A stretch of 53,406 nucleotides of DNA, filler included, from Bipalium vagum (taxonomy: Eukaryota), in the NCBI GenBank assembly GCA_037834085.1. It is 3 parts of 3 records of this genome, joined end to end, with 100 filler letters (N's around TTAATTAATTAA, not from the genome) between each part and the next. Parts side by side here need not be neighbours in the genome. Positions count along the whole stretch, not along the records: positions 21,020 to 37,663 come from JBBMKC010100667.1; 2 more parts are not named here. One strand, written 5' to 3'. Under the pieces are notes generated by a model. It did no database searches and was not told where the DNA came from. It was given only the letters and a program-made list of their open reading frames with translations. Position 1 is the first letter of the stretch; each line of letters starts with the position of its first letter. Of this stretch, positions 1,449-43,512 are shown in pieces. A program made the translations under genes and the position numbers.

Positions 1449-3070
1449 CAGTGATACAGGAAAAAAATTATTCGTACACCACTTATTTAATAATCAAATT
1501 GTTATTTTTTTCAAAAAATCAATAGAAAATTTTTTATTAAATTAGTTAGAATTTTTTTATCAAATCCAAGTAGTTTTCATAAAAATTCAAAAACTGAAAA
1601 ATTTCACTGGAAAAAAATTACGAGCTTTACTTTTATTACAAATCCAATTTTCTGATTAAAAAAAAAGAAAATATTTAATTGACCAAAATGAAGCTTATTT
1701 TAATCACCTGTTTTGCTAAATTATAGATGGTATCAATGTAATTTTAAAAAGGTTTCGCAATATTGGAAAAACTATCTGAAACTATCTCATCCTACAGTTC
1801 AAAATGTTTCAAGTTGGATATTCAAAATGAAAAGAGAATCAAGCAAACCAAAATCATTAACAGACAGACAAACCTAATATATTGTTAAAAAGTAATGAAA
1901 AATTCACAACTAAGTTCTTCCAAACTTGCAAAGACATCTCTTCAATTTCAGGAACTATTATTTCACCCAAAACCATTCGAAATCGGCTACGTAAAGCAGG
2001 TTATCAAACTGGAATCTCTAGAAAAAACCTTTCATTATTGAAATAAGCCGACAAAAAGACTTGACTTTGCCGAGTGTTGTAGGTCATATTGATGCCGTTG
2101 GAATTCTGGTAATTCTTTAACAAAAAATTATTTATGAAAAATGCATCCGGCAGAATCTTCCTCCATTTTCTTGTGTATTAGTTACAAGCGGCCTTTCGGC
2201 TACAGGGATCCCGCAACAGGGCAATATGACCGTTCGTTGCCTGGTTATCTACTGCAACCAGGTTTTTACACTATTTAAGTCGAGAGAAATTACATAGTAA
2301 AAATATCGTACCTTCCGAGGAACAGTAGTATTTATTTCACCGTATTGCATCCATTTATTGATTAAAATAAGTACAATATTTTGGTTTTGAAGGGGCAAAA
2401 ATATATTTGGAAAAAATATAAGATAGAACGTACTCAAAAATATCATTCCAATTGTGAAATATGACAGTGTAGTGCTATGATTACGGGTTTTATGAGTGCA
2501 GCTGGAGTATAAAAAAATTTTAATAATAGAAAGGATTATGATTGACCTAGGCTATGTTAAAATACTCCAAGACAATTTAACAAAAAATGAGAAAAACGGT
2601 ACCTGTTCTAATAGAGGACAATGACTGAAGCATACTGATTACACAACCAGGAATTTTTTTTATAAGACCAGAAAAATATTTACTTCGCTGTATATTTACC
2701 CTGTAGAAAATTTGTGGTCGAATTTGGTGAGAAAATTTCGTCAAAAAGATATTCATTCCGAAAAGAGCTGATTGAGGGTTTGGTGAAATCATGATCAGAA
2801 ATAATATTTGAAACTACAAATACAATACCTAGAAGACTCAAACCAATAATTAACAATAATGGAGGGCATAAAAGTATGAGTTACGATGTTGGTATCAGAA
2901 TTTTTTCAAAAATTATATTTTTGTGAAAACCATTTGAAATAATAATTTTTCCTTTCTAACTTATTTTTCTTGCTTTTCTATTGATTTATGTGAAAACCTG
3001 AAGGATTCAGTTAATCAAAACTTATTTTAGCTTAAAAAATGAAGTGTACAAATACTTTTTTCTTTCACTG
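1449..3070 (+). mobile_element. Decayed near-full-length Tc1-like transposon with an internal insertion at ~2075-2350
   Basis: The imperfect TIRs are CAGTGATACAGGAAAAAAATTATTCGTACAC (1449) and GTGTACAAATACTTTTTTCTTTCACTG|TA (to 3070). Frameshifted transposase motifs include KTIRNRLRKAGY (~1970), MSAAGV (~2490), DND (~2620), PVENLWS (~2700) and NNGGH (~2855). Confidence 0.75.
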
Positions 3071-8787: not shown

Positions 8788-11700
8788 ATGAAAATGAAAA
8801 AGTTGTGTTTCTTTTGTTCGATTATTCTTGGTTAGTTTAATCATTATTGACTGAAATATATAACTGTTTTTCAGCTTTTTCAATAGTTCAGGCTTCCAGT
8901 TACGAAGAGAAAACTTATGAAAAAGAAAATAATCACAAGAAAAGTAAAGAAAATGTGGATTTAAAACCATCCGTTGAAAAAGAAGATGACTTGAAAACTG
9001 GATATAAAGTTGATAACAGTGTAACAAAATCAAAAGATTCATCAAAAACTGATGACGAAGTTGTTGCAAGGTATATCTGCTTTTGAATTCATATGGTTTA
9101 CATAATTTTTATGTTTTCACCAGAGAGGAAGAAGCTATTAACATTGATGGGTTAAGTGTAAGTCAAATGAAAGAACTAAGGGACAAAACAGAAAAGTACG
9201 TGTTCCAGACGGAAGTTGATCGAATGATGAAATTGATCATTAATTCATTATATAAAAATAAAGAGGTATGGATTTTTTCATTATTGATTTATAAATACTA
9301 CTTATTAGTAAATAAAACATAAATGCCATCTTTTGCACATTTTCAGGAAAATGAACCAAATTATAAATCTTAAGAATTAATTTTTTGTAGATGAAATTCT
9401 ATACACAAACATTATTGGTGTAATTAATAATGTTTTCATATTAACCATTCCACCAGTGATTTTGTCTATTTGTTGGAAAACTTGTTTTATTTAATACCAG
9501 AAATAAAATATTTTCATTTTCTAAATATGCAATAAATTTGGAAATGCATCCATTTGAATGTTAAAAAAATTTGGTAATACAATAATTGTAACATTTGTAA
9601 AATGCTTTTGTGCTATTTCTTCATAAATTAGGTCTGCTTTTTATGTAAAATTATTTGTTATTTATCAAAAAGTTAAAGTAATGAAAATTTGTCATTGACA
9701 ATATTGAAGAATATCTATAGAATTAATAAATTAAAATGATATAATTTTTGTTTTATTTAAAAACGACATATAATAGTTAACTCAGTAGTTAAATAAATAA
9801 ATAAAATATAAGCTGCACAATAATCAAAATAAAAAAAAACAAAAGTTCATACTATGGAATATTAACGACTTTGTTTTTTTCTAATTTTATTCCTATAACT
9901 TGAAAATTAGATCCTGGATATTTATAACATATAAATTCATTGTTATTAACAACTTAAAACTTGAAGTTTCCTTTTTTTTTATTAATAATAATAAATAATA
10001 GATAGTAAGTGTTTTTGACTAAATAAGACATGTTGAGAAGGAACTTTTTTGATAGTCTGAGAGATTAACCTAGATGAATCGTAGAAAAAAATTGAAAAAT
10101 ATATGTTAAAACCAGTATTTAGTTAGAATATGAAAAGAGGTTTATCATGTACTGAAATATATTTAGGCTGACATTTTATTCCGACTATATTTATATAGAT
10201 TGACATTTTATTTTTAAGAAAATTGATAAATACTAGTATGCACCAGGACGAATTGTTTTATGAAGGAAAATGTCGATATTCCTAAACAGAACGAATATTT
10301 TCTTCCAATATATCGAAGAAATTTTATTTAGTTTAGTAAACAAATTGAAAAGAAATCAAGAAATCATACTTGATAAATGATAAAAATTTCGTATTAATTT
10401 TAGGAAGTTAATGTAACCAAGTAGATTTTTTGAGATTAATACATTAAATTAATAAAAAGAAAGGACAAATACTTGAAAAATCAAACAATTTTAATAAATA
10501 TTCATAAAGTTGACAAATAAATTTATAAATTAAAAATCAATTTTTGATTTTAAAATTAATTCAAATCGATAAAATATATTTTAAGATTAATTTTCTTGAA
10601 TTGAAAATCTATTAAGCCAACGGATAAGGGTAATGCTTATAGAGAGAAATAAAACAGTTGAATCTATCATTAATAATATTTGAAGATCTCATTGGATATA
10701 ACACAAGAAAAATCTTTTGTTTTAACTTATCAATTTAATTCAAATTTGAAATTAGAAAAATAAATTTTTATTAAAAAATATGTTAAAATATCCGACTTTT
10801 CATTCTTTAACGATTGAATAGTTTAGTTTCAAACATTTTTATTACATCTCGTAACTTTAACAATGTGAAAAACATAAGAACAAATTTTAGTTAAACAAAA
10901 AATGTTAGTTAAACAAAAAATGTTAGTTAAACGCCTTAACAAAATTTTCACAATAGTTAGGACATTTTTAATATATTAAATAAGCTAATATTTTAAACCT
11001 AATTTTCTATAAAGGTGTATTTTTAATTTTTTTCTTCAAATAATATTCGAGGCGAAACATTCTTTCGAGAAAAAATAATATTTCTGAATAATGAAAATAT
11101 TAAAAAAAATTTCGTTTGTCAAAATTTAAAAATCTCTACAAAAATGTATCTCACACTTATTAAGTTTGGTTCTCGGATCTTTAAAAAACAAACAAGATTT
11201 TATTTAAATTAAATAGAAATTTTTATATTTCTGATAATTATCAAATTGCTGAAAATGCTCCATATTTTGGCATTTTCAATATTTTTCAAGGTTACGAGCA
11301 CTATCACCAAGTATAAAGAGGTTTTCATTAATCTTGGTTAAACTTCGAAAAAGCAAGCAGAAATTGCAAATTTGTTTTTCCTACTTTTAAAAAAACCTAT
11401 TATATAAGTTATATCAACAATAAAAATATAAAAAATACAAATAAATACAAATTGGAGATTGATTCCATTCACTGTGGATTATGAGTACTCAAAAATTTAT
11501 TCCACAAGTATATTTTAAATACTAAAAATAGATAATCAACATTTCTCAATAAAATATACACAAGTGTGATTATATATTGTTTTTTTCACTTTGATTTTTA
11601 GATATTTTTACGGGAATTAATTTCCAATGCGTCTGATGCTCTGGATAAAATGCGATATATTGCTCTAGTAAATCAAGAAAAAGATCATGACAATGATGAC

Positions 11701-14700
11701 TTATTTATAAGAATAAAGGTATTTATTTTGTTTTAGTTATTTGTCTAAAATATACAGTAGTATGTGAATAATCAATTTTATAAATATACTTAAATTAAAA
11801 AAATAAAAATATTTAAAACTAAATAAAGGGTTCATTATTTTCTTGCAGACCTACATTCAAACAAAATTTAATTATTTTTTTACGATATCGAAGTGTTAGA
11901 ATCCAAAGTAAATCAACTGTGACCTTAACTAAACCAATGAAATCCAGCAAAAAGACTGGTCATACAGGAAGGAGCACTGTTAATCCTCAGAAGGCGGCGA
12001 ACATCAACTACATTTAGTTATTTATTATAAGGTTAATGTTCTTTCGATTTTCCAGAATAATTAAAGGGTTATCTTTAGGGTTTTTAAACATGATCTCATG
12101 AGGCCAACATTTTGGTTTCATTAAAAATAGAATTAATTTTTTTGATTCGTCATGTAATAAATCTCTAATTTAAGATGCACTAAGAATCACCAAAATATTC
12201 TTATTACGAAACAAAATACGTAAAAATTACTTTATCAATTAATTTGAAAATTCTAACCAATTATAAGATTTATTTAATCATTTTAAAAAATAATTATTTG
12301 CATCATCTACACCCTGTATATAGAATGATATTTTTTATGTTTAAATGAAATAAGTTAAAATAATATTTCTAAAATTTATTAGTGTTACTAAAATAATTAA
12401 ATTTCATTATTTGAATAATATAACTAAAAATAGTAAATGGTTAAAATTAGTAAATACAATATTAAATTTAAAAATCTTTACTAAATTTAATAAGTTTTAA
12501 ATAGAATTTTAAAAAGTTGGTTAAAAAACAGTAAAAACTATTTTAATCAATCAAAGTGCTCACATCCTGAAACTATTCACTTTAAATCATGAAATTTCAC
12601 TTCAAATTGCCCTTAAAAAGTGATGAAAATATTAAGAATGCGTATTATTCTATTATCAATAAAAGCAAGAAGAGCAACCAAGTTATCCGATAAGGGCAAG
12701 AAATTAGTTTTATCTCTAAACATTTATTCCATTTCTTTATATTGTAAATAATTAAGTTAATATTGATAGAAAAATATATTTCTCATCAATAATTTTTTAG
12801 TATTTTTTAATTGTTCTCTTTCTTAATCGATTCTGTTTCGGTATAGACAATGGAATACGTATTTTTTTGACATTAGGATTTCTGTGATAACAAATAAATA
12901 GTTACATATCAAGTCTTTGTGCATAATCCTTCTATTATTTACACTTCGTAAGTAGTTGATGACCCTATATTCGAGTATATCACGCAACAATCCATATAAG
13001 ATGTAGTGATAAGAAGAAACAAACGAAAGCCTTACATTTTAAAAAATAAGAATCATTGTACAATATCAATAAAAATTAAAAGGAATAAAATATTATTAAA
13101 GAATTAACAAATAGCAATAATTTAAATTTCATTTAAGAGTTACGAAAAAAATTTGTTATAAATTAAAAGTAATTTATTTTAGGCAGACAAAGATTCGAAA
13201 TCAATTCATATTCAAGACACTGGTATTGGAATGACAAAAAATGAATTGATTAATAACCTCGGAACAATAGCTAAATCTGGAACTTCGGATTTTATGGCCA
13301 AGTTATCAGAAAGCAAAAATAGTGGAGAGCTCAATGATTTAATCGGTCAATTTGGAGTTGGATTTTATTCGTCATTTTTAGTAGCTGATAAAGTGACGGT
13401 AATTTCGAAGTCCACTGTAGATCATCAGTATATATGGGAATCGGATTCTAAATCTTATTCAATTACAAAGGATCCAAGAGGAAATACTTTAGGGCGAGGT
13501 ACCGAGATCATTCTTACGTTAAAGGAAGAAGTCTTTGAATATTTGGAAACAGATATCTTGAGCAATCTTATTCAAAAATATAGTCAATTCATTAATTTCC
13601 CTATATATCTCTGGAAAAGTTCTGTAAAAATTGAGAAAGAAACAAATAACATCCCGGCCGTTACCAAAACTGAGGATGAAGATGAATCTGATGTAAGTAA
13701 TGTATTGTGGTAATATTCTTCATTAAGATAATAAATATTAGAAGTAATTATAATTGAAAAATAATTTTGAAAATGATAAATTTCTTACTTTATAATTTCT
13801 GTCATTTTTATCTTTATTTAAATCCATATATTTGTAATTGTATCATTCTGTATTGAAGGATTATTATTTGAGTATTTTTATTTAATTTAATAATTAATCA
13901 ATATTTATATAAAAAATCAATTTTAGAAGAAACTTGTTAAGTTTATATATAATATTAATATAACTTATGAGGAATTAAATCACAAGTTTTGATTAACTTT
14001 AAAGATCTTTTATTTTAGTTATTTAAATATTTTTATTATTTATTATAAAATCTAAATTTAGCATGTTTAGCTGAATAAACTAATTAAAATTTTTTTATTA
14101 GGTAGAACAGAATGATAAAAGAAGAACTGTCGAAAAAACTGTGTGGGACTGGGAAATAATTAACAAAAGTAAACCAATCTGGACTCGGAAAATCTCAGAA
14201 ATAACTGAAGAAGAATACAATGATTTTTTCAAGTCATTTTCGAAAGAACAGAATAATCCACTCGCTAATATTCATTTTGCTGCTGAAGGAGAAGTTACTT
14301 TTAAAGCCATTCTCTATGTGCCTAAAAATAGAGATGCCGATGCTAATAGTAGTCCGAATAAAAAGAATGATAATATTAACTTATATGTAAAGCGTGTTTT
14401 CATTACCAAAGATTTTGATGATTTGATGCCAACATATTTGTCTTTTATTAAAGGCATTATTGATAGTGACGATTTGCCTTTAAATGTATCTCGAGAAACT
14501 ATTCAGCAACATAAGCTTATTAAAGTTATCAAGAAGAAATTAGTGAGAAAAACTCTGGATATGTTAAAAAAGATGCCAGATAACATATTCAAAGAATTCT
14601 GGAATGAATATAGTGTCACAATTAAATCAGGCATAATTGAAGATGTATCAAATAGAAATAGGTTGGCTAAATTAATAAGATTTTGGTCATCATACTCTGA

Positions 14701-17071
14701 TGAAGACCTTACCAGCCTCACAAACTATGTTTCCAGAATGAAACCAAACCAGAAAGAGATATTTTTCATGGCTGGAACATCAGTAGAAGACATTAAGCGC
14801 TCACCAATGGTAGAAACTCTTCTAAAAAACCAATATGAAGTATTGTTTTTGATCGACCCCATTGATGAATACACAATTCACTCAATACCAGAATTTGAAG
14901 GGAAAAAATTCCAAAATGTTGCGAAAGAAGGTTTTAAAATGGATAGTTCCAATGAAAATCTCGAAAGAAACCGTGAAAAAATTGCACAATATTATGAAAA
15001 ACTAGTTAACTGGCTAAAAACAGACGAATTAAAAAATTATATTGAAAAGGTCGAAATATCTGAACGGTTAACAAATAGTCCATGTGTATTGATTGCAACA
15101 ACTGATGGATGGTCTGGTAATATGGAACGAATTATGAAAGCTCAGGCATATCAAAAGGCAGAACTTATGGATAATTATAAAAACTCATACAAGAAGATTT
15201 TAGAAATTAATCCTCATCATCCATTAATCAAACAGCTGAGATATTCACTAGAACACTATGATATGAGCGAAACGAGATCATTAGCAACATTACTGTATAA
15301 CACTGCTTTATTACGTTCTGGATTCAGTTTGGAAAATCCAGCTAATTTTACTAAACAAGTTGATGAAATCATAAGGACCTCTATGAGAATACCACTAGAT
15401 GAACCAGTTATCGAGGATGAAGAAATTATAGAAAACATAGAAAATCCTTTAGGAGAAAAATCAAAAATTGATTCTAATATCAATTCCGTTCAAGAAAATG
15501 AAGTGAGTTCGAAATAATTTTATTTTGATTAATTTAGAATTAATTTAAAATTAGAAATATTAATTCTTATATTTTAAAAATATACATAAATTGTTAACTC
15601 CTTTCGACATATTTATATCATTTTCGCAAAAGAAATCAAAAGAAAACTAAAAGTCCTGATGTCATATGATGAAGGTATTGATATTGTTTACATAGATGTA
15701 AAATCTACTGACAATTATTTAATTTTTTCCAATAAACTGATAATTATAATATTTGAAGTAAGATTTTCAAGTAGTTAATTATTAAGATTTTTTAGTACTA
15801 TAAATAGGTTATTAGTTACATAATCGGTGGTTTTTATATAAAATATCTATTTTTATAAAAAAATTTTCTCGAAGATGATACTTTATGGAGTAAAACTGAG
15901 ATTTTATTTGGAATCCGCAGCAAACATAACATCCAGTCATATAGTTTTCATCTAAAAAAATAAAAATTCAAAAACCCCGGCATAGTAATTTGAATATTAA
16001 CAAATAATAGAAGCAAAAATTATTGACCTTTGTAATGAGAAAAGAAACTGATTCTTCCCTAAGTTAACAAACATGGTTTAGAATCCTTAATTTAGACACA
16101 AATCAAAGCTGCAATGAGAATATTTAAATTAATCATTAGGTCAGTGGAAAAGAAAATGTAGTTTTTTATTTCTCTAATAAGGTTGTTTAAATATATCAAT
16201 TGGTAAATGTTAAATATTTTAAAATTGAAGCCTTTATTTTATTAATAAAGGTGGGACAAGTCGCAAAGTGAATAATCGATTCTGTCCGCAAATGAAAATA
16301 CAATACAATGGTGGTTTATTAAGTTCCGCATTGGAAGAAAAGAGAGCAGTACTTAACAAGTACAATTTGAAAAACCTATTGCTTTTCAGTGGTTAACCGC
16401 GAAGAAGTTTCAAAAGAACTCATGTTGATCTCACAATAGTAGGTTTCCATTTAAGGCATATGAAAAATTGAAAATTATGACTGCAAGCAATTGCCACTCT
16501 GAAGTTTTGTTGTTATCTCTTCGTCTGTGCAAGAATGGCGAATTTTAAAACAAAATCTAATGTATGGTATACAATAACATGAAGCGTTTATGTAAAAGTT
16601 AAGATCTTTACGCAACTCTATGGTACTTCAAAAACAAGAATGACTTGAAAATAAGGTAACAGTGACGGTTTGGCCGTCAGTTTTCAAATCAGGCAAAATA
16701 CTTCCAGAAATTTGAAAAAATAAATCAGAAACTTCAACCCGTAAATCAGATATTGGTCAACAGAAAAGGTCGAATCCTTCTTTACAACAAGGGAAAACAT
16801 TTGAAAAGAAAATTTTTTTATTTTATGATTATTTAAACAATGAAAATAAATTTTCTATTATAATACAACTCTAAATATTTGCGACATAATAAATTGACCA
16901 ATTAACATAGTTCAAATGCTCATTATGCACATTATGTTAATGAAAATCGACAATTGATCGGGTCTGAATTTTTATATATCTCAGTAAAATTGCTTTTAAT
17001 TAATTTAGATATTTATTCATATAATTTTTACTTTGTGTTACATTTAGCTCCATGATAAAGACGAACTATGA
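8788..17071 (+). CDS. HSP90B1: Endoplasmin / GRP94 (ER Hsp90), 7 coding exons
   Basis: Exons 8788-8830, 8875-9070, 9124-9265, 11602-11718, 13183-13692, 14102-15502 and 17048-17071 are all GT-AG and phase-compatible. Motifs: signal peptide [108 protein letters not shown]. The protein ends LHDKDEL*. Confidence 0.97.
16250..16800 (+). mobile_element. Decayed mariner transposase fragment in the last HSP90B1 intron
   Basis: Remnants resemble W..YNN.KR (~16560) and NRKG.ILL.N (~16760) of mariner DD34D transposases, with many stops and frameshifts. Confidence 0.5.
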
Positions 17072-19769: not shown

Positions 19770-20770
19770 ATGAACTACTTTATGATATTGATTGTATATA
19801 TTTATCATATATTGATTTTACAATTATTTATAATAGATTTCTTCCATTTCCTTATCGACATTTCGAAAATTATTACAAATTGAAGACGACGATGAATTAG
19901 AAAGTGATGGTGACGAGAATGAGAATGAGAATGAGAATGAAAATGAAAATGAAAATGAAGAAGTTGAAGAGTTTGAAATTGAAAATAATGAAGAAGAGGA
20001 CTCTGAAAATATAAATTCTGATTCTGATGAACAAATATCAGAAGAAAATATCAATGATGATGAAAATGAAACGGAAGAAATGCTAATTCCCGAAGAGAGT
20101 GAAGAAGAAGAAGAAATTCAACAGGAAGAAAATGAAGATGAAGAAAATTCAGATGAAGATTCGGAATCTTATCAAGATCAGAAAAGTGAACAAGTTCCAA
20201 AACATGGGAAAGTTTACAAAAGTAGAAAGCTTCATTCAAGTATTTATTAATATTCTCAATACATGTGTTATTGATGAAAAATAGTTTCAGAGAAGCATGC
20301 TTTTAGACCAACGCTAAACGATCACGACTGTGATGGAATTCCTGATGATCAAGACAAAGATGTGGATAATGATGGCTTGCTTGACCATACTCAAGATTCA
20401 GACTGGGATGGAGAACTCAATCATATAGATGAAGACGATGATAATGACGGTAAAAATATTCATTAAATATCTTTTTAACACTAAAAATTATAATAATATA
20501 TTGTTTTAATTTATTAATTTAAATTTAGGTATTCCTGATAAAGATGATCCTGATTCTAATGGAGATGGAGTTCCAGACTGTAGAGAGGATAGTTCTGATA
20601 ATAAATTAAAATTAAGATTTAAAAGTAAAAAGAAACGTCTTGATAGTGATTTGGATGGTGTGCCTGACGATTCAGATATCGATGATGATGAAGATGGAAT
20701 TCCGGATATTTTAGAAGATTCTGATGGAAATGATATTCCAGATTTTCTCGAACAAAATAAAGGTAAATAA
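19770..20770 (+). CDS. Highly acidic protein with DxDxDG (thrombospondin type-3-like) calcium-binding repeats, possibly secreted
   Basis: Exons 19770-19793, 19837-20239, 20285-20449 and 20529-20770 (introns of 43, 45 and 79 nt, GT-AG) give one open frame. It reads MNYFMILIISSISLSTFRK, then ~110 aa of D/E/N including (EN)n, then DHDCDGIPDDQDKDVDNDGLLD, DSDWDGELNHIDEDDDNDGIPDKDDPDSNGDGVPD, DSDLDGVPDDSDIDDDEDGIPD and DSDGNDIPDFLE. A donor at 20763 could extend it across the gap. Confidence 0.8.
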
Positions 20771-21019: not shown

Positions 21020-21560
21020 GGATTCCAACTCCTTATATACCATTCTGATCAGACGAATAATCAATCGTAGATCAGCTTGATTAATGGGGAATGTCGCTTC
21101 CCTTTTTAGACCGATAATTCTAAATCGGTCCCTGCTTGCGGACCCTGATCTAATCTTGGCAATTTAGGTTCGCCATTATCAAGATTAGATCCGTTTTAGA
21201 AATAATTAACTGCCCCTTTTTGTTGAGATGTACTTTTTAATTAATTAATTAATGATTATTGTTAATTAATTAATTATTATTATTATTTCTGACCCTCTTG
21301 TGGTCTTAATAATTAATTGATAATAATCAATCTAAACCCGATGCGGTCTCTACCATATACTTTACAGGGGTTGGCAGGGATGTATTCTTGGATAACCCAA
21401 CAATTTACTGAAATTTTTCTAGATCTTTTTTCAGATATTTTTTTGTTTAGAAAATTAAATATGATTCTTTTTGAAAAAGTTAGACGAATTGATGCATTTT
21501 TGAAGGCTCTTGAAAAATCTTTTTCCTGAAAAACCCTAATTAATAATTTATATCTTATCA
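21020..21560. repeat. Dispersed repeat (probable retrotransposon-derived) with a multi-hairpin motif and a stem-loop+(TAA)n tail
   Basis: 21098-21191 aligns by eye with 23261-23351. GACCCTCTTGTGGTC (21291) beside (TTA)n recurs at 23443 and 28843. Confidence 0.6.
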
Positions 21561-23260: not shown

Positions 23261-23500
23261 TTCCCTTTTAGACGTGAAATACTAAATCGGTCCCTATTTG
23301 TGGCCTGATCTAGTCTAGGTAATTTGACATTCAACACTGTCAAGATTAGATGATCAAAAATAATAAATATTAATTTATCATCATTATTAACATTATATAT
23401 CTTTATTAATTATTACAATTTATTATTATTGTAACCATTCAGGATCCTTAGCGGTCTTTAAAATTGATGTGCCTTTGGCTAACCTAACACTTTTCAACAT
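23261..23500. repeat. Second, more decayed copy of the 21020-21560 repeat family
   Basis: TTCCCTTTTAGAC..CTAAATCGGTCCCT..CCTGATCTA.TCT.GG.AATTT..TCAAGATTAGAT is followed by an AT spacer, (TTA)n and GATCCTTAGCGGTC. Confidence 0.65.
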
Positions 23501-31652: not shown

Positions 31653-34551
31653 TTATTTCCAGAAATTGAAATATGGTTTGGGAGGTGGCGTATTGGGACT
31701 GCTGGAACTGGAAGAGTTGGAAGCGTCCAACTTCAGTTCATTGCGTCTTTCGTTTTCTGCCGTAATTTTACGGGCAATTTGTTCAACTTGGGTAAACGAA
31801 AGGTCTTTCGATCTTGGCTCCAGTCCTCTTTCCAAATCGTTATAGTAACGTTCCAGTTGACCGAGAAAATTGAAATTGGGCTCAACTATAGATCGTTTGG
31901 ATTGCAAATACGTGATCGTTTGCAAAACGGAAAGTTTCGTATGGTTCAACAAATACGCAGCCACAATTGTAGCAGAACGAGAAACACCAGCCCAACAGTG
32001 AACAAGAACCTTACCATTCTCCAAATATGCTTCATCTGAAATATGGGATTAATAAAAATAGCTGACACCATGATATTTTTCTCTCCATTTTCCAATTAAT
32101 TCCATAGCACAGCTCCCCCAACATTATTATCTGTTCTGATATTAGGCCTCTTTAATATTTTCATGCTCAACTTAGTTTTTCTTTTTAATTATATCAAGTT
32201 TAATATTCATTTTTTATAGTAAAATATTTCGAAGTAGTTCGATATTTATAACGACATAATTTATCATCTGAAACAAGCAATTTTAAGGTATTAACTATCA
32301 TCACAAAAAGCTTTTTGATACTAATACAAAGTGAATACCATGTTAACTAAAACTGTAATATTTTGCCATCGAAGATGATGATAGTTTCAGTGAACTAAAA
32401 ACTTTACAAAGCCTTACAAAAATAAAGAAAAGATATCATATAATACGAAATTGAACTATCTTAACTGATCTAAGACTCTAATTCCAACCCTTAAATAACT
32501 TTTAATCATTTTAAATTTCCTTATTTAACGTTTTACACAAGTCTTATTTGCATATTTAATAATCAGATATGTTTATCAATCATTATCGATTACTTTATTC
32601 AAATTTTAAAATTTATCAATAAGAAAAGATAAAGTATTTCTCTGTGAAATTAAAGATACGAAAAAGTTTTTTTCGTGGAATTGATTCGGATTTTGAAAAT
32701 GAATTCCTGAAATAAATTCAACCAAGAACATATATCATTCCAAGATTATCTTTTCCCTAATCACCATAAGAGAAATGGTTAATTTTAAACAGGTCTAACC
32801 ACAGAACAAGTTACTTAAATAAGACAACCAACACAAAAACGTGTAACTACCAAATGTAACACCTTATATAACATTCATATTTATCGATCACGGACCGAAT
32901 TCAGTACTCGGGGGAGCTGCTGATTGGAAAACGGCTGTTCATACAAAAAATCAATTGACTCGTCATTACTTATAAAATTAATTGCTTCGTGATAATAAGC
33001 CCGTAAATCTTGCCTATTACAATCAGTAGCTGAAAGACGTTTATAGACAAATAAATTCTCGTGATAAAAAGGCACATTGGTTGTTACATTTAGAATGTGA
33101 GTGATTTTCTTTTCCTGTAATATCTCAAGATCATTGGAATCCATTTCGTTACCTGAACAAATCTTTTATTATTTCTGCTTTATTATTATTATTTAATATT
33201 ACTTTATTATATATTTATTAGGTTTATTATTTATTTAATAATATTTAATATTCATATTTATTTATTATTATAGTTGTTATTTATTATTGTTTTATTATTT
33301 TTATTAATTTTTTTCAATTTTAAAAATAATATTTAATAATTATATTTATAATATAAAAAACCTTGTAATTACGTTAATGAAAATGAAAAAAGTACAAAAT
33401 AATGATATCATTATAATAAATGAACAATAAAAAAATAATTATATCACAAAACAATTGTGAAGTAGTTAGAAATGGTTAACGACAAAGGTTCATTGATAAC
33501 TGACATATCTGTACAATTTGTGACATAATAATGATGATAATTATTATTGGATTTTTACAAACTCGATTACACAATAAACAATTAAACCACTTACCTAAAT
33601 AGAGAAATGGTAATATTTCCGACATTGTCGCATTCAAAACATCAGTAGACCGATTAGTTTCGTTCGTGGGACTGAAATGGTACTGGTCGATTTTTTCCTC
33701 CGGAATGCTCGACTCAACAAATCCCTTCGGTGAATATTTGATAAAGCTTTCATAACCTCCTAACAATGTAAAAATTCGTCATTAAAATCGATATAAAACA
33801 CAATATTTCAAATTAAGTGGGCAAAAACACGATCAATTGTCATTATTGATCTAGGATCAATACTTCTCTTGCTGATCCTGTGAAACGTGAGATTTGAACT
33901 GACTGATTGAATGATGGTTCAACGTCAGCTAAAATAACAAATCGATAATCTTTTGTTCATCATTAACAACATGACAATCAATACTAATAACTTTCCCAAA
34001 TCGTATAAAATAAAATCACCTGTCAACAAGTACGTGGAATCGAAATCCTTTCGAATATGGTCAAAAAAGTCCGTTATATGGACGTTCTTTTCGCCCTTTT
34101 GATTGTAAATGACAACCGATTCAAAATGACTGTTTCGCTGATAGAATTTGTCCCAGTTCTTTTTCGCTTGTATCATCATAGCTCTCGATGTACAATTGAA
34201 CAATTCAGCATTGACCAGGTGGCCATTTTTGAATGTTCTCACGTCTCGAGTATCGATCAACAGCAACGGATCTTGACGTTTCAATTTGGAATCCAACTCA
34301 ATTGGTAAAATTTCCGTCAGTTCGGTTTGGTGATAGTTTCCAATTTGAATTTTATCGATTGCAGCTTCCATAACATTGTTAACAAATGATTTCTGGGGAT
34401 TGTAATCGAAATCTTTGATTTTAATAGCGCGATCCGTTTCGATGGCATCCATCACTTTTAATTTACCATTACAATGGAATGACGATTTTTTAAATTTATC
34501 GTTTTTCGATTGTTTCGGAAAATTCCGTTTGGACACTAGTACACTATTCAT
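31653..34551 (-). CDS. DUSP10: Dual-specificity MAP kinase phosphatase, DUSP10/MKP5-like (rhodanese + DSP domains)
   Basis: Exons 34551 (or ATG 34452)-34020, 33759-33595, 33152-32970 and 32035-31653 splice in frame. The rhodanese part reads LLIDTR..F.NGHLVNA..VVIYNQ..YLLTGGY. The catalytic part reads SEILPFLYLGNE..ITHILNVTT..YKRLSATDCNRQDL and VLVHCWAGVSRSATIVAAYL..KRSIVEPNFNFLGQL. The NVTT and YKRL.ATD motifs are DUSP10-typical. Confidence 0.92.
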
Positions 34552-34642
34552 CGAAATAGAAAATTATAGAACAAGTTTATTTGGATTGGTTTTATTATAT
34601 CATTATAAATAGATAATACGTAGTTGCTAAAAATATAACCCA

Positions 34643-37449: not shown

Positions 37450-37540
37450 TATTGGCCAACCAATCACTCAATCGTTGGCCAATTTCTAATTACGGGGCGT
37501 CTATTCCTCTTTTGATCCACAAGTTCTATTTTTACCAATC
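37450..37540 (-). promoter_or_regulatory. CCAAT-box cluster, candidate DUSP promoter
   Basis: ATTGG/CCAAT occurs at ~37451, 37460, 37479 and 37535, about 200-280 nt upstream of the putative first exon. Confidence 0.45.
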
Positions 37541-37591
37541 TGTCCCTAATTGCGGACTGATACAATCTCGATGCCGAGATTTGATATTATT

Positions 37592-37595
<4 letters not shown>

Positions 37596-40162: not shown

Positions 40163-41317
40163 ATAAGCAAATTAAAATTTGACATGTGGTTCTGGAATTT
40201 TACTCTTTTATATTCTCAAATGCTTGAATTATATTGAATATAAAATAAATCAATCAATAAATAATAAATAAATCTCTATTTTTTCCACTTTAATAAAACA
40301 ATCGATTTTTTTACCTTCGGATTTAGTAATTCTGAAGTTAATGAAAGGGGGTAATATTATAAATGTTACTAAAGAATATTTAATAATTTTTGGGAGAGAA
40401 AAGAAAAAATCCCAGTTGACATTGAACTATTTTTTTGTAAAATTAGTAAAAAAATGTCGCAATGGAGGATTGCAGTTTTAAACGAGAAATTTGTTTATTT
40501 TTTAATGTTTATTTTAGAATAAGAAAATATATCTCTGTCGTTTGTCATAACTCCCACATAGATTTTATAATATCTGTAAAATTAAATATTATTTATCAAT
40601 ATAATCTTAATTAATAATATTAATTATAATTGATATTGTGCAAATATTTTACAAACGTGTTTCTCTAAATATTATTAATTATTTTTTTATAAATAATGTT
40701 AATATAAATATAAATATAATATAAATAAAATAATATAACATTTATTTTTTCTATTTCTTTTTTCAGTTTGAAAATTAATTAATTTTTTTTAATGTTACCT
40801 AATAAAACTTTGTCTTTTATTTTCCAATTTTAAAATCTACATAATTTGAGAACTCTTCACCACGTTGTTAGAAGTAAATAATCTGTTAAAAAATAGAGAT
40901 AAATGTGAAATTATAAACAAATATTTCCAACTTCAGATCAGAGAATTTCAAAATTCTTTGGGAAATAATGGGAATGAAGGTGACTGCGGGATAGAAATAT
41001 AAATTATAAGATATATTTAGCCAAGTCTGCAGAATTATATGAATTTTAATGAACCTCAAAAATAAAATATAATTAACTCACAAAATGTAATTACAAAAAG
41101 TGTATTTTCATTAAAAATATTTTCTCAAATATATATTCCGTTCTAACGGATGATAATTTGAAATCTGGACTAATTTAATCTTTACCGAAAAAGTAACAGA
41201 CAGTAATTTTTAAAATAAAATTATACTTCACATAAATTTTACTCCAATAACAATATATTTTCATTAATGTACAACGGAGTATCGCTTCTAGCTTCATAGC
41301 TATAATCAAAAGTTGAC

Positions 41318-43512
41318 TTGATGAAGAAATTCATCTTGACCAAATTTGAGGAAATTAAGACGGAGCAAAAACGTGTGAAAAATGAACGGAAAAAGGCTCA
41401 TACCCAGGAAATTCTCCTAAATCAACTCGATCGGTTTATTGATCCGAATTTCGATTTGACCAATATACTAAAATCGGCCAAAAAGGCGATACTGCTTTTA
41501 CACCCTGAAAGGGAAAAAAAGGGGGGAAACCGATCATGGCATCACTGGATAACGGTAAAAAGGCATACTCAATTCAATGTCGGTTTAACCAGAACCAATA
41601 AGAAGTTTTTGAATCGCTTATGCCTTCGGCCTCGGCCACTTCGTACCCAACCAAATTGGAGTTCGAAAATGATTTTAGGAAACCAAGTCCTCCGGGAATA
41701 AACTTGGATTTCTTTAATGATTTTACTGTATTCCGCGGGTCGATAGATGAGGAAATAGACATCTCTGAAATCGAAATCGCTTTCAAGAGTACGTCGAAAT
41801 CCTCCCCAGGTAGTGATGGGATAACATATGATGATTGGAAAATCATCGACCCTGAACATGTTTTTTTGCAGGGTTTGTTCAATCACATCACTCGATTTCG
41901 AAGAATCCCTGATCAATGGAAGTCCTTCAGGATCAAATTGATCTTAAAACCAGGGAAAGACACGGAATCACACCTGGTTTCTGCTTGGAGGCCCATAGCA
42001 ATCATGGATACGTCGTACAGTATTTACATGTTAATTCTGAACAACAGATTCATGCATTGGCTCCAGGCAGGAAAATTACTGAGTAGGCACCAAAAAGCCT
42101 TTCTGTCAAACGATGGGTGTGCCGAGCACAATGGAACCATTATGATTATCATTGAGAGCTCGTAACTCAACAAGACTCCGGTCCACATTTGTTGAACGGA
42201 CTTTGCTGACGCTTTCGGGTCTATACCTCATGAACTCTTATGGTATACTTTGGCTAAAAGCGGAATGAATGACTCTACGATCTCATTGATCAAAGAGCTC
42301 TATCGCAATGTCACAACGGTGTATCATTGCGGCCCGATCACTACTGATGACATCTTTGTCCTGAAAGGAGTAAAACAGGGATGTCCATTATCGATGAGTA
42401 TATTCTGTCTCAGTATAAACTTTGTTCTAAAGATTTGCACTCAACGAACAGATCCATTTCGGGTTCATTATAATGATGTCCCGGCACTAGCTTATGCTGA
42501 TGATCTGGTATTTTTTGCCAGATCAGCCAATGAACTCCTGGCCATAATGGAGGAGGTGAGCAATAAGCTGAATAAAGTTTTCATTCAATTTCGGCCTCAG
42601 AAATGTGGATATTTTATTACTGAAGCCAGCGAAGACTTTAGTATTAAAATATATGGGGAAAAAATTCCAAGGATTGGTGATAATAATCACTACCTTTATC
42701 TTGGAGTGCCCCAAGGACAGGGAAAACGCATGGGAATGGATAAAATCCTTGACGGGGTTTTAGAAGATTTCCAGCGGATTGTTGAATCCCAACTGCATCC
42801 GATGCAGAAGATTGAATTCTTTAAGAAATTTTTGCATTCAAGACTTCCGTTCCACTTTTGTAATAAATTTGTTGAAACTCTAACCCTTACATCACGCAGC
42901 GATAGAGAAGTTAGTGATAGGATGAAGCAGGTTGGGTTCGACGAACAGGTGAGAAAACTGATGCGAAAAATAACATATACTACGTTATTGCGAGGTACAA
43001 ATATTTCATATTTGTATACCCCCAAGGCACTGGGGGGTTTTTGCATAGTCCCCGCCTTTGATGACTATAACATTTGCGGTGTTATACAGGGACTGCGTTT
43101 TCTCACCCGTAATGATCTTTATTTTAGATCGCTCTCCGTTAGCCATCTGTTACATGTGTGCAGAAGGCGGTTTAGCAGGACCACTGAGGTAAATGTGGAG
43201 CTTGCCCTTAAATGGTTAAGCAATAACATCAATGGGGAATTATCCTCACAGGGTACTTGGTGGTCCAAAGTGTGAAATTCCGTTCAGGCTCTCAGAGCCA
43301 GAGATATTCAATGTGATTTCATCTCGTTTGCGGAAACTATCATGTTAAAAGTGATAGTGAAACTTACGAGTGATGAAACAAAACAATATTTCTTCGGTAA
43401 CAAGAATATTAATGAGGCAACCATGACTTTGCACCAAGGGCTAGGGATACATTATTATCTCAGGTGGAAAAGTCATGAGGGGCAAGAACGAGTACTAGCT
43501 TTTGTGTATTAG
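41318..43512 (+). pseudogene. Decayed reverse transcriptase ORF of an RLE-type non-LTR retrotransposon (NeSL/Utopia/R2-superfamily-like)
   Basis: Motifs: SPGSDGITY..W, WRPIAI, QKAFL..DGCAEHN, DFADAFGSIPH, GVKQGCPLS, LAYADDLV, PQKC, YLYLGVP, S.LHPMQK, LYTPKALGG, W....GQ. There is a frameshift near 41600 and in-frame stops at 42163, ~42193 and 43273. The CCHC knuckle and endonuclease are absent. Confidence 0.9.

Follow-up and report, generated by a model that had tools for sequence, protein, structure and literature searches.

Several retrotransposons are known to insert into genes of small nuclear RNAs (snRNAs) and other structural RNAs. According to the accessible part of PMC4640811, the snRNA targets are U2 (Keno and Utopia) and U1 and U6 (Dada), and the planarian LIN elements use 28S and tRNA genes. 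The snRNA-derived heads of the short SINEU elements of crocodilians derive from U1 or U2 in the available portion of PMC4494074, in which a figure legend also has a U5 label. In our search of freely accessible papers, no U4-targeting retroelement was found. Among the LTR retrotransposons, the env-carrying gypsy elements of flatworms have the order gag-env-pol (PMC13524379, in the part available). HDV-like self-cleaving ribozymes are defined, in the accessible sections of PMC4908430 and PMC10879173, by P1, P1.1, P2, P3/L3 and a catalytic C that opens J4/2.

The window analyzed in this study is a pack of three AT-rich stretches of the Bipalium vagum assembly GCA_037834085.1, comprising 53,406 nt including filler. 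A preliminary description had interpreted three places in this window (here copies 1, 2 and 3) as copies of one HDV-like RNA; the places belong instead to two unrelated repeats, one represented by copies 1 and 2 and the other by copy 3 (Table 1). We consider it quite probable that copies 1 and 2 represent a part of a Gypsy LTR that is rich in hairpins and likely serves the LTR promoter, that copy 3 is a short U4-headed retroelement, likely inserting into U4 snRNA genes by means of a NeSL-type LINE, and that the parts of an HDV ribozyme are missing from both. The fallback proposal, a structured cis-element of a retroelement, holds for copies 1 and 2, although the element is of the LTR (Gypsy) and not the non-LTR type; as a proposal of one family it fails, since copy 3 belongs to another. 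Elsewhere in the window, exons of an HSP90/endoplasmin-like gene (8841-15514, + strand) and of a dual-specificity phosphatase-like gene (31656-34563, - strand) were recognised from translation only, and an ORF with Asp-rich DxDxDGxPD repeats is present at 20510-20767 (+ strand).

Table 1. Coordinates of the LTR and U4-linked features along the window.
Feature	Position	Strand	Remarks
5' part of the LTR of an env-bearing Gypsy element (copy 1), from U3 to just beyond the TATA box	21020..21402	-	Ends at the contig end, 21020; 92% to nt 1-377 of solo LTR L009
TATATAA box of the LTR	21033..21039	-	Putative promoter element
Stem D	21045..21075		Missed by the preliminary description; two compensatory changes between young and old lineages
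Stem A	21086..21103		Identical with hairpin A of the preliminary description; weaker in the old lineage
Stem B' (TTTAG/CTAAA)	21105..21124		Pairing of 95% across 54 copies; old lineage with two compensatory changes
Core, GGTCC/GGACC stem closing a variable loop of 8 nt	21127..21144		"P3/L3" of the preliminary description
Stem C, 12 bp, extendable to 17	21147..21191		One compensatory change and a smaller loop in the old lineage
Two more variants of the core motif (CCCT..TGCGG.C) within the U3 of copy 1	21293..21348		21293-21305 and 21337-21348
Copy 2, decayed U3 piece	23261..23489	-	Intermediate lineage of the LTR of copy 1; LTR 5' end at 23489
Copy 4, U3	37450..37595	-	Old lineage of the LTR of copy 1; stem D 37452-37482, core 37542-37557, stem C 37564-37581
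U4-headed element containing copy 3	2116..2351	-	5'-truncated, with two internal deletions; within a decayed DNA-transposase gene
U4 snRNA nt 12-24	2339..2351	-	Remnant of the U4 head
Copy 3	2186..2262	-	Middle of the U4-headed element; no covariation and no homology to the LTR motif
3' tail of the U4-headed element	2116..2179	-	Common with the 3' UTR end of the Ulp1-RT-RLE LINE

All of the hairpins originally described in copy 1 are present, namely GGGGAA/TTCCCT (21086-21103), GACCGAT/ATCGGTC (hairpin B, 21109-21130), the core (21130-21147) and the 12-bp stem (21147-21191), followed by CG (21192-21193), and the fold of copy 1 beats shuffled sequences on both strands (z -2.4 on the strand described and -3.3 on the opposite one). 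Copy 2, described at 23261-23351, is a genuine relative of copy 1 (78% identity, E 3e-11), but its hairpin B is broken and the CG is absent; decayed as it is, it gave z values of -0.9 and -1.5 on the two strands. The overlooked copy 4 (HMM E 4.5e-11 over 37451-37570; covariance model 1.4e-7) led to an old lineage of the same LTR, for which 28 candidates were found and all were scored.

The genome search with copy 1 gave 2827 candidates, 40 of which were scored, at 91-100%, and the repeat was found to measure 0.6-1.0 kb and to run from TG to CA. Both ends were present at ten loci, nine of them solo LTRs and one continuing into an element; the target duplications of the solo LTRs were exact 4-bp repeats at seven and had one mismatch at two. 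A junction of the LTR with a primer-site-like sequence, presumably of the tRNA-Trp type, was found at 10 distinct loci. The Pfam domains of the internal region were zf-CCHC (8e-12), RVP (7e-6), RT_RNaseH (6e-39) and Monjiviricetes_fusion (7e-14), with weak support for an integrase (MLVIN_C, E 0.0025). The fusion glycoprotein (PF24664) was detected in L144 (7e-14) and L143 (1e-5), in fragments only, and L144 has the order gag-env-pol. By its TG..CA ends, target duplication, primer site and gag-pol, this repeat is a Ty3/Gypsy LTR retrotransposon. The TATA box, a late AATAAA and the primer-site-like junction show that the sense of the LTR is the minus strand of the window, and the motif accordingly lies in U3, shortly before the TATA box and in antisense orientation to the transcript.

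Covariation of the three stems originally proposed did not rise above shuffles in the 54 LTR copies (94, 43, 44 and 38 of 500 shuffles; 16 of 500 for the percentage paired), and hairpin B was seen only in young ones. Five stems in a row (D, A, B', core and C) are better supported: 90.5% of the cells were paired and 21 were double-changed, each reached by 0 of 500 shuffles, and the covariation score was reached by 4 of 500, but the counts of pairs with a double change (70 of 500) and of further pair types (164 of 500) did not stand out from shuffles. These five inverted repeats, separated by 2-nt spacers, are located in U3 between the LTR start and the TATA box, and B' and hairpin B (82.5% paired) are mutually exclusive. 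Comparison of the lineages (6 young, 11 intermediate and 16 old chosen copies, with the anchor of the B' 5' arm off by one base in several rows) gave five compensatory changes, of which D and B' have two each and C has one. The covariation is modest and confounded by descent, and apart from this hairpin row the LTR part is ordinary. The balance of G-T and A-C tolerance in the stems points to both strands, and in the old lineage stem A and the outer pair of the core have disappeared with no compensatory change, so that the row may act either as DNA or as RNA.

The most likely reading of the row, which we credit with about an even chance, is that it would represent repeated and palindromic promoter or enhancer DNA sites, and it would have been kept by selection while the Gypsy element was active. 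Two strict matches to the core motif occur in the U3 of the solo LTR L009, a number reached by 0 of 2000 shuffles, and three loose variants occur in the U3 of copy 1; the motifs of U3 may be RUNX, homeodomain or CCAAT sites. The model of the row had no match in 8 LINE loci. The main alternative, in our view somewhat doubtful, is that the stems form a structure in the 3' end of the Gypsy genomic RNA, with a role in export, packaging or formation of the 3' end, or else fold into a new catalytic RNA, their promoter position being incidental. The five compensatory changes with altered loop lengths, the spacers and the strong folding of young copies on both strands (z -2.5 to -7.2) are consistent with such an RNA. 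Points against it are the short palindromes that make up several arms, the mixed strand signal and the presence of the core loop motif, with no stem around it, farther upstream in the old lineage. Template switching can also even out palindromes, and the folding of intermediate and old copies is weak (z mostly -0.1 to -1.4).

The second repeat is distinct from the LTR. The best match of copy 3 to copy 1 was a core of 18-20 nt with a score of 19. Among 1341 unrelated tiles of 77 nt from the window, 41 reached this score, as did 208 of 5000 shuffles, and copy 3 was missed by both the HMM of the LTR region (E<=10) and the covariance model. Its CCCTG, which gives it its likeness to copy 1, occurs in 2 of 30 family members, CTCTG being found in 25 of 30. 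The search with a shared-core pattern gave 0 matches, the pattern fitting neither family. No covariation was found in the short-element family for the stems originally proposed (487 of 500 shuffles; 35 of 42 stretches aligned), and an H-type pseudoknot was rejected on the same ground (477 of 500 shuffles). The search for the family gave 250 candidates, and its element measures about 295 nt and has sharp ends. A U4 snRNA beside one of its loci first surfaced in the Rfam scan of the loci, and readings of the family as a Penelope pLTR or a Helitron were abandoned after the U4 head was found.

The first 24 nt of the short element correspond to U4 nt 1-24, with at least 21 of 24 positions identical at 29 of 39 unique loci. 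The sequence continues into U4 from about nt 26-30 at 4 of these 39 loci and is without U4 behind it at the other 35; an exact pattern in which other bases than those of U4 precede U4 nt 26 retrieved 1 locus. The upstream flanks were unrelated (25 compared, 8 loci left out by the anchor), and no consistent target duplication was found, 13 of 20 loci being without a repeat of at least 4 nt. The 3' flanks matched U4 at a mean of 4.47 of 10 positions (19 loci, excluding two U4-resident copies and one duplicate), against 4.23 +/- 0.20 for random sequence. Judged by its sequence, the element is a SINE of the SINEU type, being short and non-coding, with a small-RNA head and a 3' tail shared with a LINE.

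Several further observations concern these elements and the U4 genes. The element of copy 3 interrupts a decayed transposase gene, presumably Tc1-like (1780-2800, + strand), and at L038:1456-1879 the insertion of a U4-headed element splits a Gypsy LTR within its core motif. In L032, L033, L200 and L203 the two U4-linked families are found as tandem insertions. Canonical U4 genes exist in the genome, 9 of 19 Rfam matches lying over the cut-off. A U4 gene very unlike the main U4 type of the genome (L175:56-191, - strand), on a 300-base contig, is possibly a paralogue or foreign DNA. U4 retrocopies in L182, L183 and L186 end at about nt 58-64, near the ends of several U4 pieces behind elements.

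The tail of the short element recurs in a second family (75-86% identical over 40-85 nt), in which U4 from nt 28 onward follows at 3 of 30 loci and 27 of 30 are without U4. In the longest of these tail-sharing copies, L230 and L231, the upstream part is the end of an RLE ORF. A search with the RLE domain, with 150 of 1935 candidates scored, yielded L277, a nearly complete LINE copy, which is 86.8-91% identical to L230 and L231 and has U4 nt 1-21 (100%) as its 5' end; L228 has a second such U4-headed LINE 5' end. ORF1 of L277 is opened by, and in frame with, the ATG of U4 itself, and is followed by a single TGA and then by 1144 codons with a Ulp1 protease, RT and zinc finger/RLE (Pfam: Ulp1 PF02902, 4e-11; RT PF00078, 3e-24; weak zf-RVT). 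The translations of L277, L230 and L231 contain what we take to be RLE motifs. By this predicted domain content (Ulp1, RT, C-terminal zinc finger and RLE), L277 classes as a NeSL-type RLE LINE. TGA-CT(A/C), a known readthrough context, is found at an identical position between ORF1 and ORF2 in all six long relatives covering it (L277-L282), which suggests programmed readthrough.

As L277 ends at a contig end inside the 3' UTR, the head and the tail of the LINE are linked via overlapping copies and not in one molecule. Nothing in the long LINE copies matches the body of the short element (nt 25-210), and comparison of the upstream flanks revealed no recognisable U4 promoter upstream of any element copy. 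Run X1 contained loose ends at U4 nt 28-29, with flanks common with L277 and L205, and these are not independent. A Utopia identity of the LINE was rejected, its junctions being with U4 and not U2, and the RLE element of the window (41.3-43.5 kb) and an RLE fragment in L034 were rejected as partners, having no common tail. The former (41306-43509, + strand) is a decayed RLE-type non-LTR element (RVT_1 E 1e-19), a 60%-identical relative of which, in L236, ends near a U4 fragment of opposite orientation.

The U4-linked families are probably a LINE/SINE pair that targets U4. The complete scheme, in which the NeSL-type LINE would target U4 genes at nt ~21-28, use the U4 promoter and start codon, read through the conserved UGA and mobilise the 295-nt U4-headed SINE, is in our estimation evenly balanced between right and wrong. 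A source copy would sit in a U4 gene at nt ~21-28 and be transcribed from the U4 promoter, so that the element RNA would carry the U4 head and need no ribozyme to set its 5' end. The LINE protein would recognise the tail and insert copies by target-primed reverse transcription, mostly off target.

A less probable origin, and an unlikely one in our judgment, is that the short element is a SINEU-like chimera that gained its U4 5' piece once by template switching, the U4-flanked copies being occasional insertions in U4 pseudogene fragments or co-copied read-through and not the product of active targeting. The prevalence of off-target copies and the lack of a consistent target duplication agree with this origin, as do the 3'-truncated U4 pseudogenes common in the B. 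vagum genome and the origin of the SINEU heads by template switching given in the available part of PMC4494074. However, two families with different bodies are both U4-headed (nt 1-24 and 1-21) and have 3' junctions at U4 nt ~26-30, as expected of an insertion inside U4, and read-through, too, requires a source copy in U4. A reading of the short element as an enlarged variant of U4 snRNA that has many retropseudogenes is hardly credible, in spite of its start at U4 nt 1, the U4-like short words in order and a Sm-site-like T-run at its end, since U4 genes of canonical length exist, the Rfam U4 matches begin at the last ~20 nt of the element and cover the U4 part behind and not the body, and the 3' end is common with the LINE 3' UTR.

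The idea that a single variant or decayed HDV-like self-cleaving ribozyme is common to all three places is likewise very improbable, as no Rfam match at the motif, no full parse on the strand described and no covariation of the proposed stems above shuffles was obtained. The Rfam covariance models placed no ribozyme family at the motif (E<=5 in the window, E<=10 at 20 loci), and the same library matched L198 and L199 weakly (E 0.45 and 0.49). The nested pseudoknot, with P1, P1.1, P2 and J4/2 around P3/L3 on the core, was found on the strand described in 0 of 52 LTR copies (the core could not be placed in 2 of the 54 supplied), 0 of 27 copies of the short element (29 supplied) and 0 of 23 old copies (28 supplied, the anchor falling on an upstream repeat in at least one), whereas 2 of 5 weak Rfam HDV candidates from the B. 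vagum assembly, used as controls, parsed completely. On the opposite strand, one complete parse was obtained, in the old copy L150. These results are from a core-centred parser, which replaced a first descriptor that missed all five control candidates and in its relaxed form matched 16-19 of 60 shuffles per family. Comparison by eye with known cores gave no fit to hammerhead, twister, twister-sister, pistol or hatchet ribozymes.

At the level of bases, the core is close to HDV P3/L3 to the extent that the commonest LTR variant (CC at 21134-21135, with C at 21134 in 28 of 54 aligned LTR copies) differs at 1 of 11 bases from the HDV string quoted, one nearer than the window copy, and this closeness argues for a ribozyme; the loop, however, is not conserved in the older lineages. 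Copy 3 with CCCU-GU-hairpin-C, a CPEB3-like order on the transcribed strand, and the existence of HDV-like candidates elsewhere in the assembly point the same way. Against these stand the similarity of copy 3 at chance level, the antisense orientation of the motif in the LTR, and the members of the short family, which run uncut across the motif and start ~85 nt upstream at U4 nt 1. The C at 21192 is present in 38 of 54 LTR copies, mostly followed by T-runs and not purines, and the CG after hairpin C is not a family feature (G at 21193 in 1 of 54). As the core loop is A-rich in most intermediate and old LTR copies, and GA follows the P1 3' strand where P1.1 needs G(G), a conserved L3 able to form P1.1 was not found. 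The HDV-like candidates of the assembly (L198:252-321, + strand; L199:1031-1099, - strand; also L195-L197) lie on short, GC-richer contigs, and those of L198 and L199 parse completely and differ by compensatory changes; the candidates of L195-L199 may come from another organism in the sample.

Compared with the HDV-like ribozymes (HDV, CPEB3, R2, L1Tc and theta) as presented in the accessible text of PMC4908430 and PMC10879173, the motif is alike in that a short loop rich in pyrimidines, closed by 3-5 bp, precedes CCCU-G and a hairpin. It differs in being without the P1 5' strand, P1.1, P2 and J4/2 together, in its variable loop and in its position away from the 5' end of the element. The Gypsy element resembles the env-carrying Ty3/gypsy "errantiviruses" of Platyhelminthes, Nematoda and Bryozoa (PMC13524379, in the part available) in its class III-type fusion glycoprotein and gag-env-pol order; the U3 hairpin row is absent from that part of the description, and the element here is known from fragments.

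If the proposed scheme is true, the LINE/SINE pair would be the first U4-targeting retroelement system within the literature searched, and a compact case of a parasite that draws its promoter, its 5' end and its translation start from a host gene. Few RLE retrotransposons are site-specific, and these are under development as insertion tools; a U4-specific element with a long open ORF2 would add a new target specificity. The U4 pair also offers a direct test of the transcription of snRNA-headed SINEs, which is left open in the accessible part of PMC4494074.

Among the described systems, the LINE is comparable with Utopia, NeSL, R5 and the planarian LIN elements (PMC4640811, in the part available), with which it has in common the Ulp1 protease, RT, zinc finger and RLE, a fragment of an snRNA at the 3' junction, a weak specificity that leaves many copies off target, tandem insertions and the lack of a clear target duplication. 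It differs from them in its predicted target, U4 nt ~21-28, in copies that carry the 5' end of the target from nt 1, in the ATG of U4 in frame with ORF1 and in the TGA-CT(A/C) that splits the ORF. The short element is similar to SINEU, as far as described in the available portion of PMC4494074, in being short and non-coding, with a 5' head from an snRNA and a tail like that of a LINE. Its head, in contrast, is U4 and only 24 nt long, its putative partner is an RLE LINE and not Tx1, and its head and 3' flank together make up a single gene, one half each.
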